DNA of 43,714 nt from a virus (IMGVR_UViG_3300033067_001172:1-43714); one strand, 5' to 3'. Counted from the stretch's first letter, positions 1,578 to 43,714 are shown. Program-made: numbers and translations. Notes: generated by a model from the letters alone, not told the origin.

Positions 1578-2314
1578 AGGACTTCACCGTTCCAACGTCC
1601 GTTACTTCGCAGCGGCATCGGGATTAAGTGAGGATGTCCGCCGAGAATCATCAGGCATCCGACGATTCCCTTCTCGAGGGAGTTCCGCCCGTAAGCCTGC
1701 GCGAGGGACTTCGAGTCAGCGAGGCAGCCTACGTGCGCGCTCCAGAAGAGTGCGGTCGGATTCGCCCAGTAACTTACGTGAAACTTACTATGAAAGTGCC
1801 CCTCAAGGGAGCACATGCTCTGACGCTGACTGAGCTTACCCGCTGCTGAGGACTTCCCGTGATGGCAGTAAACTTTCGAACCATTACTTAACGTAAGGGT
1901 GAGATCAAAGTGCCAATTCCAGCCCTTCGGAGCGCAGAGCGCCTCTCGGTAATTCACGAGGAGCCTCCGGGGAATCCCCGCAGTCTTAGCCTTCCGATAC
2001 GCGAGGCTTCCGTGGTTCGACTCCAATACGTCCACCTCAGGAAACAATTTATATATGGGTTTCAGGAAATGAATCGCCTTCTCAAGTTCAGGTCCTGCCG
2101 AGTCTAGGTCTGGGTCTGATTCGTGATAACTCAAGGCGTGCGAGTCGATTTCATCGCCGAGACAAATTACGCGATCGGGTCGATACTTCTGCGCTACTGC
2201 CGCAAGAAACTTATGAGTATCCGGATGGCAAAATGGCATATGCATATCAGGTATGACTAGAACTCTAGCGTTCCTACTCATGCGTCTCATTAAAACATGT
2301 GAGTACTCGAGCAC
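1574..2314 (-). CDS. Calcineurin-like metallophosphoesterase (start may be 2290 or 2281)
   Basis: DMH, GDEID, SNH, HHG and GHFH metal-binding motifs. Confidence 0.9.
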   Translation of the reverse strand: MLEYSHVLMRRMSRNARVLVIPDMHMPFCHPDTHKFLAAVAQKYRPDRVICLGDEIDSHALSYHESDPDLDSAGPELEKAIHFLKPIYKLFPEVDVLESNHGSLAYRKAKTAGIPRRLLVNYREALCAPKGWNWHFDLTLTLSNGSKVYCHHGKSSAAGKLSQRQSMCSLEGHFHSKFHVSYWANPTALFWSAHVGCLADSKSLAQAYGRNSLEKGIVGCLMILGGHPHLIPMPLRSNGRWNGEVL

Positions 2315-2424
2315 TAGGTCCTAATTGAATTTACGAGACAAAACCGGACTGGACTTTCCAGCTTCATTAAGGCTTGAATGAAACTGTTACAGGGAGGCGC
2401 ACTCCACACAAAGGGCGGCACTAA

Positions 2425-2628
2425 ATGAATCAAACACCGGGTGAGTGGCGCGAATACTCAAGGCTCGTACTGACTGAACTCAAACGTCTGAATGAAGAAC
2501 AACGAAAGCTCCACAATAAAGTCGATATGATCTTAACTTTTAAGTGGCAAATTGTCGGAGCGAGCATTGCACTCAGTATGATTCTTACGATTGGGTTTCA
2601 GGTTATAGTTTTCATTTCAAGGGGGTAA
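2425..2628 (+). CDS. Small coiled-coil plus C-terminal TM protein, holin-like
   Basis: Heptad-like N-terminus followed by one hydrophobic segment; first gene of the lysis region. Confidence 0.6.
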   Translation: MNQTPGEWREYSRLVLTELKRLNEEQRKLHNKVDMILTFKWQIVGASIALSMILTIGFQVIVFISRG

Positions 2629-2637
2629 CGAGGATGC

Positions 2638-2823
2638 ATGGAATGTGAATCGTTAAATTACATAAGCGCCATTGCATTCCTAAGTTACTCAATCTTCGAG
2701 TACTGGATCGGACGCAGTCAGCGAACAAAGGCGTCGAGTTTAATTGAATTAACTGGTATTGTAATTGGATTCGTAGTGCTGAAACTAATAACTAAAGGAG
2801 CCAAGGATGGAAAAGGCATTTGA
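2638..2823 (+). CDS. Small two-TM membrane protein, holin candidate
   Basis: Two hydrophobic stretches, basic C-terminus, GAGG RBS. Confidence 0.55.
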   Translation: MECESLNYISAIAFLSYSIFEYWIGRSQRTKASSLIELTGIVIGFVVLKLITKGAKDGKGI

Positions 2824-3031
2824 ACTGAGCGCACTCGCAACAGAACTGAAGAATCAAGGACTCGAACTCGCTGAAGAATCAATGAAAGTTGCAGTCGTAG
2901 GTATATTTAATTGGATTGAAGCATCAGTTAAGCTGACTGCAAATCCTTACGATGACTTCTTCATCATGGCACGTCCGCAGATTGAAGCAGTCTTAAATCC
3001 AGTTGTCGAAAAAATAAACCCAGCCGACTGA
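2807..3031 (+). CDS. Hypothetical protein
   Basis: AAGGAG RBS; amphipathic helical sequence with NPYDD motif. Confidence 0.75.
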   Translation: MEKAFELSALATELKNQGLELAEESMKVAVVGIFNWIEASVKLTANPYDDFFIMARPQIEAVLNPVVEKINPAD

Positions 3032-3154: not shown

Positions 3155-3520
3155 ATGGTAAATCGAGCTGTTCGACTATTAAATGCTGCAACTTCTACTG
3201 GAGTAAGCGCCGCACAAAGGCCTAATTCCACAAAGAAAACGTTTCAATTAATCGGACGGACAACCTCAGGTTCTGGCTCTGCAATCGTAAAAATTCAGGG
3301 CTCCCTCACGGGGGGAGCTGGCAACGATCAATGGGTCGACATTATGACTATTACTCTTACATTATCTTCAGATGGAGCTTCGACGAATTCAGACGGCCAG
3401 GCCTCTGATTCAGCTTGGTCTTTCATTCGAACTAACATTACGACCCTCACTGGGACTGGTGCTAGCGTTGACCTTTATATGGGCGTTGAGGATTCGAGGT
3501 ATGGCAATTGCGAAATCTAA
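3155..3520 (+). CDS. Putative small virion/fibre-associated beta protein
   Basis: S/T/G-rich beta-strand pattern, GAGG RBS, overlaps the fibre gene start. Confidence 0.6.
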   Translation: MVNRAVRLLNAATSTGVSAAQRPNSTKKTFQLIGRTTSGSGSAIVKIQGSLTGGAGNDQWVDIMTITLTLSSDGASTNSDGQASDSAWSFIRTNITTLTGTGASVDLYMGVEDSRYGNCEI

Positions 3521-5820
3521 GTAAGAAGCTCAAAAATCTATTACTCGCTGTGGGGGTCAGTCACGGCATAAATAGCCCGACTCAGCTTCCAGACATGACA
3601 GGAAATTCGGGCAAATTCCTCACTACGAACGGATCACAGCCGTCTTGGGCAACGGTGTCTGGTGGTGGCGGAGGGGTTACAAGTGTCGGCCTATCGTTGC
3701 CAAATATCTTTACTGTATCAAACAGCCCAGTCACAACAACCGGGACGCTTACTGGATCATTAGCCACGCAGGCAGCCAATATGGTTTGGGCGGGGCCAAC
3801 GACTGGTGCAGATGCTGCGCCTACATTCAGAGCGCTAGTTGCGGCTGATCTTCCAAATACAGCGGTCACTCCAGGGTCATACACCAATGCAGACATAACT
3901 GTTGATGCTCAGGGAAGAATAACGGCAGCGGCAAACGGTTCTGGCGGCGGCGGTGGGTCTCCTGGTGGCTCAAATACGCAAATTCAATACAATAGTTCTG
4001 GCTCATTTGCTGGGTCAGCCAACTTTGTTTGGGACAATTCCAACAAGAAAGTTTCAATCAATTATCCTGGCGTTGGGACCGGACAACAAACATCTTTGCT
4101 TCTAACTAACTCAACAGCAGCAAGCGCCGGTAGCCAGCAAAAGAGCCCTTCTTTGCAGCTTCAAGGACAAGGTTGGAAAACCAACGCAACCGCTGCATCT
4201 CAATCGGTCGAGTGGACGCAACAAGTTTTGCCGATTCAGGATGCAGCGGCTCCGAGGTCTAGCTATTATCTAAGCTCATCCGTCGCTGGCGGCTCTTTGG
4301 TTGACGCTTTAAAGATTGATAGCCTGGCGTCGGGGTCAGTCGCTTACCCTAAAATTATTGGTTATGGCCCGCTGGTCGTTGATTTAGATGTGAACGGTAC
4401 GGCTAATCATCTTGAGCTAAAGAATGGGTCTGGCACTAAATCATCAAAGCTTGATTTCACTTTTGGCGGAACAAGCAAAACGTATTTAACCAGCAATCCT
4501 TCTGGCACGACTGATTTAGTAAGCAACGGGAATTTTAGTATCAAGCAAAACATTGCATCTCCACAAACCATGATGACCATTACCAACGCGGATGTAATTG
4601 TTTTTAGCCATTTCAGCGCTCAAACGGATGGCCGGATAAGCGGCAGAGCCGCTGTTGGCAGCGGTATGGGCTATGGCTCTACAAAACTTCGAGTTCATGG
4701 TTCTCAAGCCATGCTTGGAACTGTAATTAGCGGAACATCAACTAGCTACACCATTTCTGATTCTGCTGTACCGTCGTCATATTTTTACTGTGACACAACC
4801 GATGCCGCTGCGTGCACCGGGACACTTGGGGCCTGTAGTGATTACAGCTATGCGAATTGTCCAACTGCCGCTGGCTGCACTGGGGTTTCGTGTTCAGACT
4901 ATAATGAAACATCAAGCTCAACCTGCACGAACGCAAACGCAGCTTGCTCGTGGGGAACATCTGAGTGCTCTAATCACAACGACGATCAAAACTCATGTCT
5001 AACAAATAGCTGGCCAGATAACTATTGCACCTGGACCCCTCCTAGTTGCAATTCGTTTTTCTCAGCTCTAGATGCAACCCCATGCAACAATGCTTCTGGC
5101 TGTTCCACTACGTTTGCCGGCAATTGTTCGGATTATCACGGCAACCAATCGGGCTGCGAAAATAATGTTCTTGGCTGTGTTTGGAACGCCGGAACAAACG
5201 AATGCGAAAATAGCTACTATACGTCATGCGATGGATCTTATTCCGGGTCTTTGGGGACATGCTCAGGTGGGACCTATGACACAGGGGTTTGCAGCGGTAG
5301 TGCCTGCGCTGGGTCAGGGTCGTGCGCAACCATAGAAACGAGTACTCCATGCAATGCCGTTTTTGGCGGGGCCTGTACTTGGACGACCGGCATAGATATA
5401 TTTTTGCCAGCTATGTCGGTGGCTGGCATACATCTAGAGAGCGATTTGCCCTTAATTAACGTGAAGAAAATAAATTCAGGCGGAGGCTCTTGTAGAGTTA
5501 AGCCAGCGACCGGCTCTGGCGACACGATTGAAGGCGCGAGCTCGGAAACCCTAAGCACACAGTATGCTAGCGTAAAACTACACGGTGGGTATGCGGAGGC
5601 AAGTTGTAGCGCCTTTGACAATAACCAAGCCGCATGCGCTGCTGAGGTTGGCTGCAATTATGTTGAAAGCTGTAGCCAATGGGGTTCTAACGAGTATATG
5701 TGCACAAGCAACACCGGCTATGGGTGTACCTGGAATGCTCCGAATTGCGAAGGGACATACACCGGACCAAGCGCTTGTTCTGGAACATACGCAACCTTAC
5801 ACAAGTGGTTTAAGTGGTAA
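3508..5820 (+). CDS. Tail fibre/adhesin-like protein with nested Cys-rich modules
   Basis: Fibre motifs LPDMTGNSGKFLTTNG, VTSVGLS, GSYTNADITVDAQGRIT, GGSNTQIQYN; 34 Cys in the C-terminal ~345 aa; TTG start with GAGGT RBS. Confidence 0.8.
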   Translation: MRNLSKKLKNLLLAVGVSHGINSPTQLPDMTGNSGKFLTTNGSQPSWATVSGGGGGVTSVGLSLPNIFTVSNSPVTTTGTLTGSLATQAANMVWAGPTTGADAAPTFRALVAADLPNTAVTPGSYTNADITVDAQGRITAAANGSGGGGGSPGGSNTQIQYNSSGSFAGSANFVWDNSNKKVSINYPGVGTGQQTSLLLTNSTAASAGSQQKSPSLQLQGQGWKTNATAASQSVEWTQQVLPIQDAAAPRSSYYLSSSVAGGSLVDALKIDSLASGSVAYPKIIGYGPLVVDLDVNGTANHLELKNGSGTKSSKLDFTFGGTSKTYLTSNPSGTTDLVSNGNFSIKQNIASPQTMMTITNADVIVFSHFSAQTDGRISGRAAVGSGMGYGSTKLRVHGSQAMLGTVISGTSTSYTISDSAVPSSYFYCDTTDAAACTGTLGACSDYSYANCPTAAGCTGVSCSDYNETSSSTCTNANAACSWGTSECSNHNDDQNSCLTNSWPDNYCTWTPPSCNSFFSALDATPCNNASGCSTTFAGNCSDYHGNQSGCENNVLGCVWNAGTNECENSYYTSCDGSYSGSLGTCSGGTYDTGVCSGSACAGSGSCATIETSTPCNAVFGGACTWTTGIDIFLPAMSVAGIHLESDLPLINVKKINSGGGSCRVKPATGSGDTIEGASSETLSTQYASVKLHGGYAEASCSAFDNNQAACAAEVGCNYVESCSQWGSNEYMCTSNTGYGCTWNAPNCEGTYTGPSACSGTYATLHKWFKW

Positions 5821-5840: not shown

Positions 5841-5933
5841 ATGAATTTGGATAACAAAACGCTAAAGCTAATCATTGTTGGAGTTGGCGTTGCTATTATT
5901 GTTTTCGCTTGCAAATATTTCGGAGCAGTTTAA
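5841..5933 (+). CDS. 30-aa single-TM peptide (below ORF-track cutoff)
   Basis: MNLDNKTLKLIIVGVGVAIIVFACKYFGAV; GGGAG RBS. Confidence 0.6.
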   Translation: MNLDNKTLKLIIVGVGVAIIVFACKYFGAV

Positions 5934-24298: not shown

Positions 24299-25645
24299 CT
24301 ATTGGTAGAATTCAGTTACTTCAATGTAGCCAGATCCGCCCGCACCGCCAGCAGCGCCACTCGTTCCAGCTCCCCCCGCAGTACCGCCACTTCCTACTGC
24401 GTAGGCGTAAGTAGCTAAAGGTGCAGAAATTAGTGCATCTATGTAACCCCCAGCGGAACCGCCAGAGCCACTGTAGTGAAGCAATATACCGCTTGCGCGG
24501 GCTCCGCCGCCACCTGAGCCTGTATTAGCCACGGCAGCACCGCCCGCCGCTGTTCCCTCGCCGCCGCCAGTTCCAGCGCCTCCGAATGGACTTACCCCTC
24601 CCATACCGCCTGCTATGTCTGCTGCGCCTGAAGCTGCGTTGAGACTTGAACCACCACCAGAAGCACCTTGAATTGAGGTGCCGATTGGCCCAGTCCCGAG
24701 TGAGGCAGAGCCGCCCGCGTCCGAAGCTGAAGCCGCGATACCGTTATAACCTTTGCCGCCCCCGTTAGCCGCAAGTAATGCAGTACCGAAAGTAGTGTTT
24801 CCTCCGGCAGTAGCAGCTGTACCTGCTGAGGTTCCGCTACTGCCGCCACCACCACCACCACCTACCATTCTTACGCGCAGGTAGAGTGGTTTGGGGTTTG
24901 TAGGCAACGTATAAGTGCCGGAACTGGACGTGAAGGTTTGAATAGTCGGGGCTTTAGGAACCGGATAGTCCCCCGAGACAATTGCGGAAGGCGCATTTGT
25001 CCAAGCGAAAGAAGCTGCTGGAGTGACAGTTACGCGTCCTAGGTACTTCACGGGCTTTGAAGTCTGCGCCGCAGTCGAGTAGAGCGTATTAATTGTGTCT
25101 GCTCCGCCCGCTCCCCCCTCTGCAGTTGAGCTGGCGACGACACCTTCGTAAAGCATGTTACCGTTAACGACTCCGAGGACAGTCGCGGAGTCCGTATAGA
25201 TTCCGTAAACGTGAAGGGTGCAGACTGAAGTCGCGGTGCAACCCAGTGCGGAGCCGTTACTCACTACGACGGAGAGGGCAGCCGCAACTGAGGATTTAGT
25301 CACGGTTCCAGTCGTAGCGGTTGCGTTTCTATAACTGAGTACGCAGGGACTTGCAGCACTTGGATCGGCTCCCGCTCCGTCCTTAAGGGCAATCGTAAGG
25401 GCTGAGCTTGCGACTGAAGCCGCGAGGGAGCAATTCGAAATTGCCGGAGCTGCGACAGCATTCTGAGCCGCAGAGAAAATGGTCCCGTCCTGAAGGTAAA
25501 TTTTATTTTTAAGGACTTTCACTCCGTCGGAGTAGTAGATTACGGCTTGAGGTCCGCCCGGCGCTGCCTTCGTCGTAAACGCAGAGAGCATCGAAAGTAC
25601 AAAGAGAAACCCGGCGAGGATGATATTGGGTTTTCGTTCCATCAC
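24299..25645 (-). CDS. Fibre-like Gly-rich protein with predicted signal peptide
   Basis: Shares its middle and Gly-rich domains with 18898-21381; N-terminus ERK-IILAGFLFVLSMLSAF-TTKA. Confidence 0.75.
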   Translation of the reverse strand: MMERKPNIILAGFLFVLSMLSAFTTKAAPGGPQAVIYYSDGVKVLKNKIYLQDGTIFSAAQNAVAAPAISNCSLAASVASSALTIALKDGAGADPSAASPCVLSYRNATATTGTVTKSSVAAALSVVVSNGSALGCTATSVCTLHVYGIYTDSATVLGVVNGNMLYEGVVASSTAEGGAGGADTINTLYSTAAQTSKPVKYLGRVTVTPAASFAWTNAPSAIVSGDYPVPKAPTIQTFTSSSGTYTLPTNPKPLYLRVRMVGGGGGGGSSGTSAGTAATAGGNTTFGTALLAANGGGKGYNGIAASASDAGGSASLGTGPIGTSIQGASGGGSSLNAASGAADIAGGMGGVSPFGGAGTGGGEGTAAGGAAVANTGSGGGGARASGILLHYSGSGGSAGGYIDALISAPLATYAYAVGSGGTAGGAGTSGAAGGAGGSGYIEVTEFYQ

Positions 25646-42853: not shown

Positions 42854-43572
42854 AACCGCCAAAGAAACTTAGTTTACTCATAGGGACCCCGATGTTCGGC
42901 GGCCTTGCATATTACCATTACGTCGGCAGTATGATGGACATTACAGGCTACTGCGTTGTTAATGGAATTAAACTTAAGGCGCAATTTATTGCGAATGAGT
43001 CACTAATCGGACGCGCACGGAATCGTATCGCACAAATGTTCCTTCAGTCCGATGCCGATAAACTATTCTTCATTGACGCTGACATTGGCTGGACCGTCCC
43101 AGACTTCGCTCGCATCCTCGAATCGAACAAGCTCGTCATTGGGGGAATTTACCCAGGTAAGGCGTTCCCAATCGAACTCATGGCAAATGCCCTGCCCGAA
43201 CACAACGAGACCTTCGACTTCCGAGTGCGCTCACTCGAGCAACTTCAGGCACTCGATAAGCAGTACGGGAATTCGCGCGGAGAGGTCGAGGTCCGGCACG
43301 TTCCGACGGGATTCCTTATGATCGATCGAAGCGTACTCGAGCGGCTCAAACCTCACGTCCGTACCTACGCGACTCACGCACTCGGAACTAAGGAAGAGGT
43401 CCAGATGTGGGATTTTTTCCCCTCCGGAGCCCTTGAATCCGGAGAGTACGAGAGCGAGGATTGGGCCTTCTGCCGTCTCGTCCGCACTCACCTCGATTGT
43501 CGAGTATGGCTCAACACTCGCACTGTCCTCAGTCACACGGGAACTCACACCTTCAAAGCAGGTCACATATGA
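42850..43572 (+). CDS. GT-A fold glycosyltransferase-like protein
   Basis: IGTPMFGG, ESLIGRARN, LFFIDADIGW (DxD), TGFLMI, SEDWAFC and L.H.G motifs; ATG 42850. Confidence 0.85.
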   Translation: MKPPKKLSLLIGTPMFGGLAYYHYVGSMMDITGYCVVNGIKLKAQFIANESLIGRARNRIAQMFLQSDADKLFFIDADIGWTVPDFARILESNKLVIGGIYPGKAFPIELMANALPEHNETFDFRVRSLEQLQALDKQYGNSRGEVEVRHVPTGFLMIDRSVLERLKPHVRTYATHALGTKEEVQMWDFFPSGALESGEYESEDWAFCRLVRTHLDCRVWLNTRTVLSHTGTHTFKAGHI

Positions 43573-43714
43573 ATATGCCCGATAATTTCAGCTGCCCCGA
43601 TAACATGCGCGAGCACCTTGCGAAAGTATTCTCCGGAGAGTACGACATTCCCCTTGAAGGTGATGGGTACAGGATCATAGACGTCGGTGCAAATTGCGGA
43701 GCCTTCGCAGTCTG
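43038..43714. repeat. Right copy of imperfect terminal repeat (partner 1-677)
   Basis: Same ungapped alignment as 1-677. Confidence 0.95.
43569..43714 (+). CDS. FkbM methyltransferase, 5' part (truncated by window end)
   Basis: MNMPDNFSCPDNMREHLAKVFSGEYD...; matches the ORF at 532 with two E/D changes. Confidence 0.85.
   Translation, partial: MNMPDNFSCPDNMREHLAKVFSGEYDIPLEGDGYRIIDVGANCGAFAV

Follow-up and report, generated by a model that had tools for sequence, protein, structure and literature searches.

The closest known system to the protein described here is the needle of T4 gp37. According to PMC6957217, domain D11 of gp37 is inserted in D10, the tip is inserted in the stem, and the needle contains His-iron sites. 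A second point of reference is the XD1 domain, which PMC8825819 views as a spacer of unclear function. Here we describe a fibre-like protein encoded by an open reading frame (ORF) at 3508-5820 of the viral DNA IMGVR_UViG_3300033067_001172:1-43714; this whole stretch of 43,714 nucleotides is referred to as the window. Its small C-terminal beta domain (the host domain) is interrupted by two inserts rich in cysteine (Cys). To our knowledge, repeat proteins are nearly always tandem. Judging by the sequences of this protein and its homologs, its modules of four Cys (4-Cys modules) are almost certainly nested recursively inside one another. The architecture is real and well supported, and it comes with a new genetic partner, a thioredoxin-fold gene.

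Order and balance of the nested cysteines

The ORF encodes 34 Cys, all within aa 428-757. Insert 1 (C436-C623, nt 4813-5376) contains 24 of these in the order 4-(123)x5-4x5-123, the digits giving the place of a Cys in its module. Five openers (C443/451/457, 462/473/480, 487/497/507, 514/526/532 and 540/550/557) are followed by the closers CEN, CDG, CSG, CSG and CAG at C566, 574, 585, 595 and 600. The insert begins with CTG and ends, after the closers, with C606/615/623-TW; together these form a sixth, permuted module which encloses the other five. Insert 2 (C700-C757, nt 5605-5778) has 8 Cys in the order 123-123-4-4, that is, two openers and two closers, and C428 and C662 are host-domain Cys outside both inserts. 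These positions agree with the original prediction, made from the window alone, which had read the same modules in both inserts, spacings of x7-11 and x5-9, and nesting in place of a tandem array; none of the 249 parsed homologs reads as tandem.

The homolog searches, two of which listed 120 of 180 and 150 of 211 matches, gave 270 proteins, and 249 of these were parsed. The 21 left out were the fragment P0151 and 20 unparsed proteins, mostly fragments (including P0252, which has two arms). In 12 proteins the Cys of the host domain were removed manually, and 73 sequences make up alignment A3. Insert 1 was found to contain 16-44 Cys, a multiple of four in 243/249 homologs: 16 (5 homologs), 20 (14), 24 (149), 28 (61), 32 (11), 36 (2) and 44 (1). 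The six exceptions have 26 Cys (four proteins) or 34 (one), each with one extra pair, or 35 (P0230). Gain of Cys in pairs was noted in P0145/P0147/P0224/P0227, P0139 and P0214. Insert 2 has 0 (13 homologs), 4 (15), 8 (219) or 10 (1) Cys. Lys and Arg together make up 0.3% of insert residues. Pfam returned nothing in the Cys region even at E 5, querying PDB sequences with A2 or the host core gave no match, and locus searches using single proteins (the window segment; P0271) found no relatives.

Opener and closer classes were called by a classifier with a grammar unable to count. Opener number equalled closer number in 180 of the 181 standard strings, compared to a mean of 80 and a maximum of 102 after shuffling. 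The pairs found were 3/3 (5 strings), 4/4 (11), 5/5 (111), 6/6 (44), 7/7 (8), 10/10 (1) and 8/7 (1). Opener and closer counts thus vary together from 3 to 10 levels, as the original prediction had expected, and the unmatched numbers it had named as counter-evidence were found in one homolog. As called, 206/249 class strings are balanced. The window protein is standard under the first classifier; the second required re-calling one Cys.

Further evidence concerns the register between the outgoing and return arms, whose modules are lettered in Table 1. Linkers A3-B1 and k4-k5 covary in length (rho 0.82), and C3-D1 with k2-k3 to a lesser degree (0.34). By mutual information (MI) with average product correction (MI-APC), the nested diagonal takes rank 3 of 120, and the strongest pairs include A-F (126 sequences, effective 78). 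In P0214, one extra Cys per arm is found at the same level. Openers and closers folded as separate chains scored 0.47 (best control 0.00), with at least 92% contact agreement between runs and a partner predicted local distance difference test (pLDDT) score of at least 81. This was judged weak support: the mark is reached by 116/157 solved and 2/215 mismatched pairs, and scores up to 0.60 include only 18 of the solved pairs together with both mismatches.

Module number changes 77 times on a 248-tip host-domain tree, compared to 80-87 times with shuffled labels, although a tree resting on about 90 residues may overcount changes. As the observed number is close to the shuffled one, depth appears to be labile, and balance was kept repeatedly instead of being inherited from one event. 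In 96 of 97 close pairs one level apart, the extra opener is at rank 3 or deeper. The earlier proposal of growth by insertion at the tip therefore stands as regards distal gain; it does not cover the sub-tip gains with a matched extra closer found in P0099 (vs P0060) and P0253 (vs P0238). Permuted 3-4-1-2 tips occur in 131 insert-2 strings and reverse-polarity nests in P0269 and P0117, and per-shell conservation showed no clear base-to-tip gradient. Each inner doll occupies a single uninterrupted piece of DNA; cassette replacement would therefore be the simplest route of change, and recombination of balanced cassettes could alter depth and tip while leaving the ladder of strands intact.

Several results weigh against nesting or its register. 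P0230 is unbalanced, with 8 openers and 7 closers. Moreover, in 43/249 strings the classes as called could not be reduced. One re-call was enough for 28 (among them the window protein with the second classifier) and two for 8; 1 string took more than two, and the other 6 are the non-multiples of four. The nest-reduction test checks balance only, and random orders pass it too. Among the linkers, D3-E1 (-0.12) and F4-A1 (-0.18) fail the covariation test and B3-C1 shows no covariation, and the MI signal could reflect co-inheritance by shell instead of contact. Lastly, the extra opener and closer are in the expected register in only 74/97 pairs, many of which share one partner.

Predicted host domain, arms and tips

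The AlphaFold2 model, built with 73 aligned sequences, has a pLDDT of 85 and a predicted template modelling score (pTM) of 0.52; a single-sequence AlphaFold model (pLDDT 33) was discarded. Each opener is modelled as helix-helix-strand and the closers as continuous strands, and the tip of insert 2 has a low pLDDT (54-63). In VIA-align, model residues 1..358 align as one domain of 83-90 residues, with Z 8.0-9.6 and a root-mean-square deviation (rmsd) of 2.0-2.5. The matches (Z, rmsd, residues) are T4-type gp10 (9.6, 2.1, 85), TSP4 90-175 (9.3, 2.0, 83), gp9 (8.4, 2.3, 84) and the Pa223 spike (8.0, 2.4, 84). The predicted model thus contains a beta-sandwich of about 85 residues superposable on XD1 of gp9, gp10 and TSP4 (Z 8.3-9.6). 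The fold matches are the same set as the XD1 homologs in Table 2 of PMC8825819, namely gp9, gp10, CpaA and StcE. A Pfam search of the host domain, which is split by the inserts, gave no match (including PF07880); in the ESM Atlas, the match at rank 3 (0.76) is to a cluster in which 59% of members are PF07880, which is a lead only.

Because the host domain closes in the model, both inserts leave and return at neighbouring points. An out-and-back fold of both arms is highly probable from the model. Two earlier claims, that both inserts interrupt one small beta domain and that they run out and back, are borne out as predictions. Fold searches listed no match to the whole arm, as the host domain filled the match lists. 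The fibre may be a trimer.

The tip module of insert 1 (module E) has as its best PDB sequence match the C-terminal domain of the variant surface glycoprotein (VSG) MITat1.1 (phmmer, E 0.05), and Foldseek aligned the same chain over 32 columns (rmsd 1.1, E 3.6). Four Cys and an aromatic two residues after Cys3, as in the VSG unit, were found in the tip. Among 20 tips, 3 match the PSI family PF01437 (best E 1.5e-4; member 1 scores 17.8, with a cut-off of 23.1) and 2 resemble the Paramecium surface antigen family PF01508. PSI domains have six to eight Cys with a CxxC pattern; here each module has four, and CxxC occurs in 5/249 inserts. No VSG family match was found for the tips in Pfam, and a profile of 20 other tip modules had no PDB match at E 10, which tells against the likeness. 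We take the bond order of VSG-type units to be Cys1-3/Cys2-4. The available text of PMC4697842 does not give a bond order; in PMC12226131, the VSG unit has four disulfide-bonded Cys and a conserved aromatic residue.

On this basis, each module would consist of two short helices and a beta-hairpin, with Cys1 and Cys3 paired locally and Cys2 and Cys4 paired across the hairpin, an order assumed from the look-alike folds. The next module would take the place of the hairpin turn, so that the strands continue as one antiparallel ladder. For five levels, a rough extended-chain estimate puts the ladder at about 13 nm, with a span of 8-26 nm over the relatives. The predicted long-range pairs are C451-C600, C473-C595, C497-C585, C526-C574, C550-C566 and C615-C436 in insert 1, and C710-C757 and C732-C747 in insert 2.

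Probable export, the thioredoxin-fold partner and alternative explanations

Disulfides in the nested arm are very likely, given the sequence evidence below. The original prediction had found no signal peptide and proposed that oxidation would have to follow lysis, or that the Cys could bind metal. The first statement is doubtful, as the window N-terminus resembles a short signal peptide. Its 7-residue hydrophobicity is 3.03; four signal-bearing loci range over 2.4-3.1, and 39 signal-less loci reach no more than 2.1. The 9-residue score of the window N-terminus is only 1.9, so it groups with the signal class on the 7-residue window and not on the 9-residue one. In its clade, 7/14 members score as signal-bearing. 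The window fibre probably has a functional signal peptide, though with appreciable doubt: the call is heuristic, and some signal-less relatives also start with a KNLL-like motif, both of which count against export.

Further genomic analysis revealed the partner. There are 45 distinct loci (11 duplicate-contig loci and the cellular locus L012 being left out), of which 4 end without downstream DNA. In 39 of the other 41, a virus-encoded thioredoxin-fold CxxC gene follows the fibre gene at -13 to +542 bp; no thioredoxin gene was found in the window, a complete genome. The 39 partner genes, 8 of which built the profile and 31 of which did not, fall into 16 clusters at 50% identity and span code 11 and TGA-recoded loci. 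Pfam checks were made on 16 partners (PF00085), several scoring below the curated cut-off. The motifs are CPYC (18), CPKC (5), CPNC (4), CPHC (2) and others, and never CGPC. A reverse search with a three-sequence partner profile was weak, returning four loci of which three were its own seeds. Among 50,697 GenBank phage records, three weak matches to the L011 partner were found, and none to the L022 partner, P0017 or the window segment. A CxxC tail, for example CDSCQ or CEGCQ, terminates 8 of the 39 partners (L003:5985-6461 and L011:6113-6592 among them); such tails resemble a swinging redox shuttle. Directly after the partner in L007 (1604-1912) there is a VKOR-like membrane ORF (PF07884, E 0.002, below cut-off), a possible electron sink; no other upstream oxidase turned up, although no search aimed at Erv1 was made.

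The partner was found in 36/36 signal-less loci compared to 1/4 signal-bearing loci, where the partner bears a signal of its own (Fisher p 0.0004), and by cluster in 10/10 compared to 1/4 (p 0.011). It was found neither beside the fibres of L001, L008 and L064, all signal-bearing, nor elsewhere on their contigs. Two facts weaken this split: these contigs are only 59-85% complete, and in L001 the signal lies ahead of frameshifts. Oxidation would not have to await lysis, because the window fibre has a likely signal and signal-less relatives have an adjacent thioredoxin-fold gene. The split makes disulfides likely and metal unlikely, and in this indirect way supports the disulfide stapling first proposed. 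Two routes can be envisaged. In one, which fits the window phage with its short signal and lack of a thioredoxin gene, the fibre would be exported by Sec to the periplasm and oxidised by host Dsb enzymes. In the other, which fits most relatives, the phage partner would act as an oxidase or isomerase in the cytoplasm. From gene adjacency, the partner likely acts on the fibre, and an oxidative action is slightly favoured.

The partner could instead be a reductase or holdase which, during assembly, keeps 32 Cys reduced and free of scrambling; the bonds would then form in air after lysis. The plain thioredoxin fold (PF00085) and the eight CxxC tails, which we take to resemble reductive shuttles, are in keeping with this, as is the fact that the sole candidate for an upstream oxidase is the L007 ORF with its match below cut-off. 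However, CGPC occurs in 0/39 partners, and CPHC or CPYC with a Val-Pro loop is presumably DsbA-like. In L045, both the fibre and its partner (5067-5660) bear signals, and the top PDB profile matches include chains of the protein disulfide isomerase (PDI) family, though multi-domain scores inflate these. A reductive role is unlikely.

It was also considered that the same nested, disulfide-locked arm belongs to an exported protein in the periplasm or on the infected cell surface (adhesin, decoy or superinfection block) and not to the virion. Signal-like N-termini are found in 39-44 of about 249 homologs, and the arm is present in the membrane-anchored or signal-bearing protein of L012, from a Patescibacteria metagenome-assembled genome (MAG) contig, and in the signal-bearing P0195. 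In addition, the window gene adjoins lysis genes. Conversely, the majority of homologs have no signal and contain fibre or collagen repeats, the host domain has a baseplate or spike fold, and the L064 gene lies between portal-like and prohead-protease-like genes (as read by eye). A second candidate exported virion protein was noted at 24299-25645 of the window (- strand), a fibre-like ORF (phrog_863, E 5e-5) with a clear signal peptide in the structural cluster; since it too has a signal, a signal does not exclude a virion role for the fibre. A location outside the virion is quite unlikely.

A virion fibre with putative binding tips has a reasonable probability, and a somewhat smaller majority of our confidence goes to the fuller model, in which the XD1-type domain of such a fibre would send out two nested, disulfide-locked, out-and-back arms likely touching the host surface. 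Two points tell against it: ORF 3508-5820 sits amid lysis genes on the strand opposite to the structural operon, and it is difficult to see how an exported protein would come to sit on a virion which assembles in the cytoplasm.

If the Cys bound metal, with four thiolates per module, zinc or iron would staple the arm into a rod comparable to the T4 gp37 needle, along which iron sites are described in PMC6957217. Such a rod would leave the split between thioredoxin genes and signals unexplained. The cytoplasm is reducing, and four Cys per module would suit one tetrahedral site. The iron sites of gp37 and gp12, however, have a His-x-His motif, and HxH occurs in 0/249 inserts and CxxC in 5/249. 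Furthermore, the look-alike modules (VSG C-terminal domain, PSI and Paramecium surface antigen) are extracellular, and those of PSI and the Paramecium antigen are disulfide-bonded. The same is described for VSG in PMC12226131, and the earlier suggestion of metal binding is accordingly improbable. A mere sequence pattern, with openers folding locally and closers forming a separate CxG-repeat domain or linker, could account for the failed register tests and the weak complex support, yet it is most improbable, as it would leave each opener with an odd Cys and would explain neither the closure of the host domain nor equal counts in 180/181 strings over many independent changes.

Genome setting, other carriers and comparison with known systems

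The window is a complete phage record of 43,714 bases (CheckV 100%) with genes for terminase, a portal-like protein, capsid and PolA. The fibre gene is flanked by small membrane-protein ORFs and by CHAP, SLT and lipoprotein-like ORFs. The lipoprotein-like N-termini among window ORFs suggest a diderm host; searches with terminase and capsid gave distant matches only and assigned no host. Hints of a fibre include the phrog_9625 match, tail-fibre matches in BFVD and collagen repeats in homologs. An ATG start at 3501, which is frameshifted, was rejected because P0075 agrees with the TTG frame. Features of the ORF are collected in Table 1.

Table 1. Features of the fibre-like ORF in the window
Feature	Position	Strand	Remark
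Fibre-like protein, 770 aa, TTG start	3508..5820	+	Start backed by near-identical N-terminus of P0075
Likely short signal peptide (basic n-region, LLLAVGV, SHG)	3508..3567	+	Heuristic hydrophobicity
N-terminal fibre repeats	3589..3939	+	phrog_9625 (unknown function), E 2e-16
XD1-type host domain, first two strands (YTIS, YFYCD)	4744..4797	+	Model alignment
Base module F, closer Cys placed first (C436)	4813..4821	+	
Outgoing arm, openers A-E, three Cys each	4834..5178	+	Helix-helix-strand per opener in model
Closed tip module E of insert 1	5125..5211	+	Weak VSG MITat1.1 match
Return arm, five closers (C566, 574, 585, 595, 600)	5203..5313	+	Continuous beta strands in model
Base module F, three opener Cys placed last	5323..5382	+	A-F covariation among top long-range pairs
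XD1-type host domain core	5383..5598	+	Fold matches
Insert 2, 8 Cys: module H within module G	5605..5784	+	Homologs: 0, 4 or 8 Cys
Host domain last strand (KWFKW)	5797..5817	+	W355 invariant in A3

In sequencing run X1, which is possibly the source sample, one contig spans 3400-6000 with zero differences. Run X2, from another study, contains 151-base pieces at 5350-5500 (identical) and 5636-5786 (one difference), and no RNA data were listed as holding the sequence. The window ends (5-~680 and ~43040-43714) encode near-identical text, the C-terminus of phrog_1574 followed by a methyltransferase start, with at least one residue difference; this is an apparent terminal repeat of about 700 bp, though the record is classed as linear. 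Right after the fibre, at 5841-5933 (+), there is a 30-aa hydrophobic ORF; in relatives its place is taken by the thioredoxin gene or by one of about 92 aa. The latter was seen in several loci (L001:6117-6389, L002:7296-7571, L064:8278-8556), in L064 matches phrog_5084 (E 7e-5), and possibly encodes a fibre chaperone or cap.

The nested arm is not confined to one setting. In P0262, P0263 and P0252 it is set in other host domains. In the L012 protein (1772-3007), whose gene adjoins lepA, the arm consists of three openers, a permuted tip and three closers, and there is no XD domain. Both this protein and P0195 are apparently cell-surface proteins. Reading frames were also seen to pass through TGA in L004, L005, L009, L019, L039 and L044, and W stands in 9 database proteins at positions that are G in homologs; this is consistent with TGA=Gly (table 25). 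Such loci would point to hosts of the Gracilibacteria/Absconditabacteria type, to which we take this code to be assigned. A portable arm, TGA-recoded carriers and a Patescibacteria cell protein would link the family with attachment among uncultured epibionts.

A literature search of titles and abstract starts turned up no account of a fibre or partner of this kind. The T4 gp37 needle (PMC6957217) is alike in its out-and-back insertion in a small C-terminal beta domain, its nested insertions and its distal tip, features which are predicted here. It differs in having three non-repeating levels and His-iron sites, whereas the family described here repeats one 4-Cys module 4-11 times, with variable depth and two arms. 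XD1 of T4 gp9 and gp10 and of CBA120 TSP4, and the C-terminal domain of the Pa223 capsid spike, are alike in the predicted host fold. Unlike the matched chains, which are compact and without a large insert, the host domain is terminal and split in three by the Cys arms. VSG S1/S2, PSI (PF01437) and Paramecium (PF01508) units share the spacing C-x7-11-C-x5-9-C-x-aromatic-x-C and give weak sequence or fold matches; they are eukaryotic, closed, and tandem or single, and convergence is possible. Integrin beta, with its PSI, hybrid and beta-I domains, is a Russian-doll domain insertion closed by a long-range disulfide. However, it has different domains at each level and a fixed depth. A repeat nested 3 to 10 levels deep and kept balanced would amount to a testable context-free protein grammar under selection, and a rigid rod made of one chain, its length adjustable and its tip exchangeable, could be a useful scaffold.

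Tailed-phage virion proteins fold in the reducing cytoplasm, where 16 disulfides are not expected. From the contrast between signal-bearing and thioredoxin-adjacent fibres, a specific experiment with two genes can be drawn up to ask how phages could form disulfides, and signal peptides on phage fibre genes gain a reading. Tentatively, tailed phages may build a disulfide-locked, nested-repeat antenna whose reach and tip are reset by balanced cassettes and which has its own oxidative-folding route, through either a cytoplasmic oxidase or the periplasm followed by attachment to the particle. A parallel for such a route is the cytoplasmic disulfide pathway of poxviruses (E10R/A2.5L/G4L, with an Erv1-type oxidase), in which a virus-encoded thioredoxin-fold protein also serves disulfide-bonded virion proteins. 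That pathway belongs to a eukaryotic virus, whereas in these tailed phages a single adjacent gene is found, without a copy in the window genome. If the proposal is true, it would represent the phage counterpart of the poxvirus pathway, serving a nested repeat grammar shared with surface proteins of Patescibacteria.

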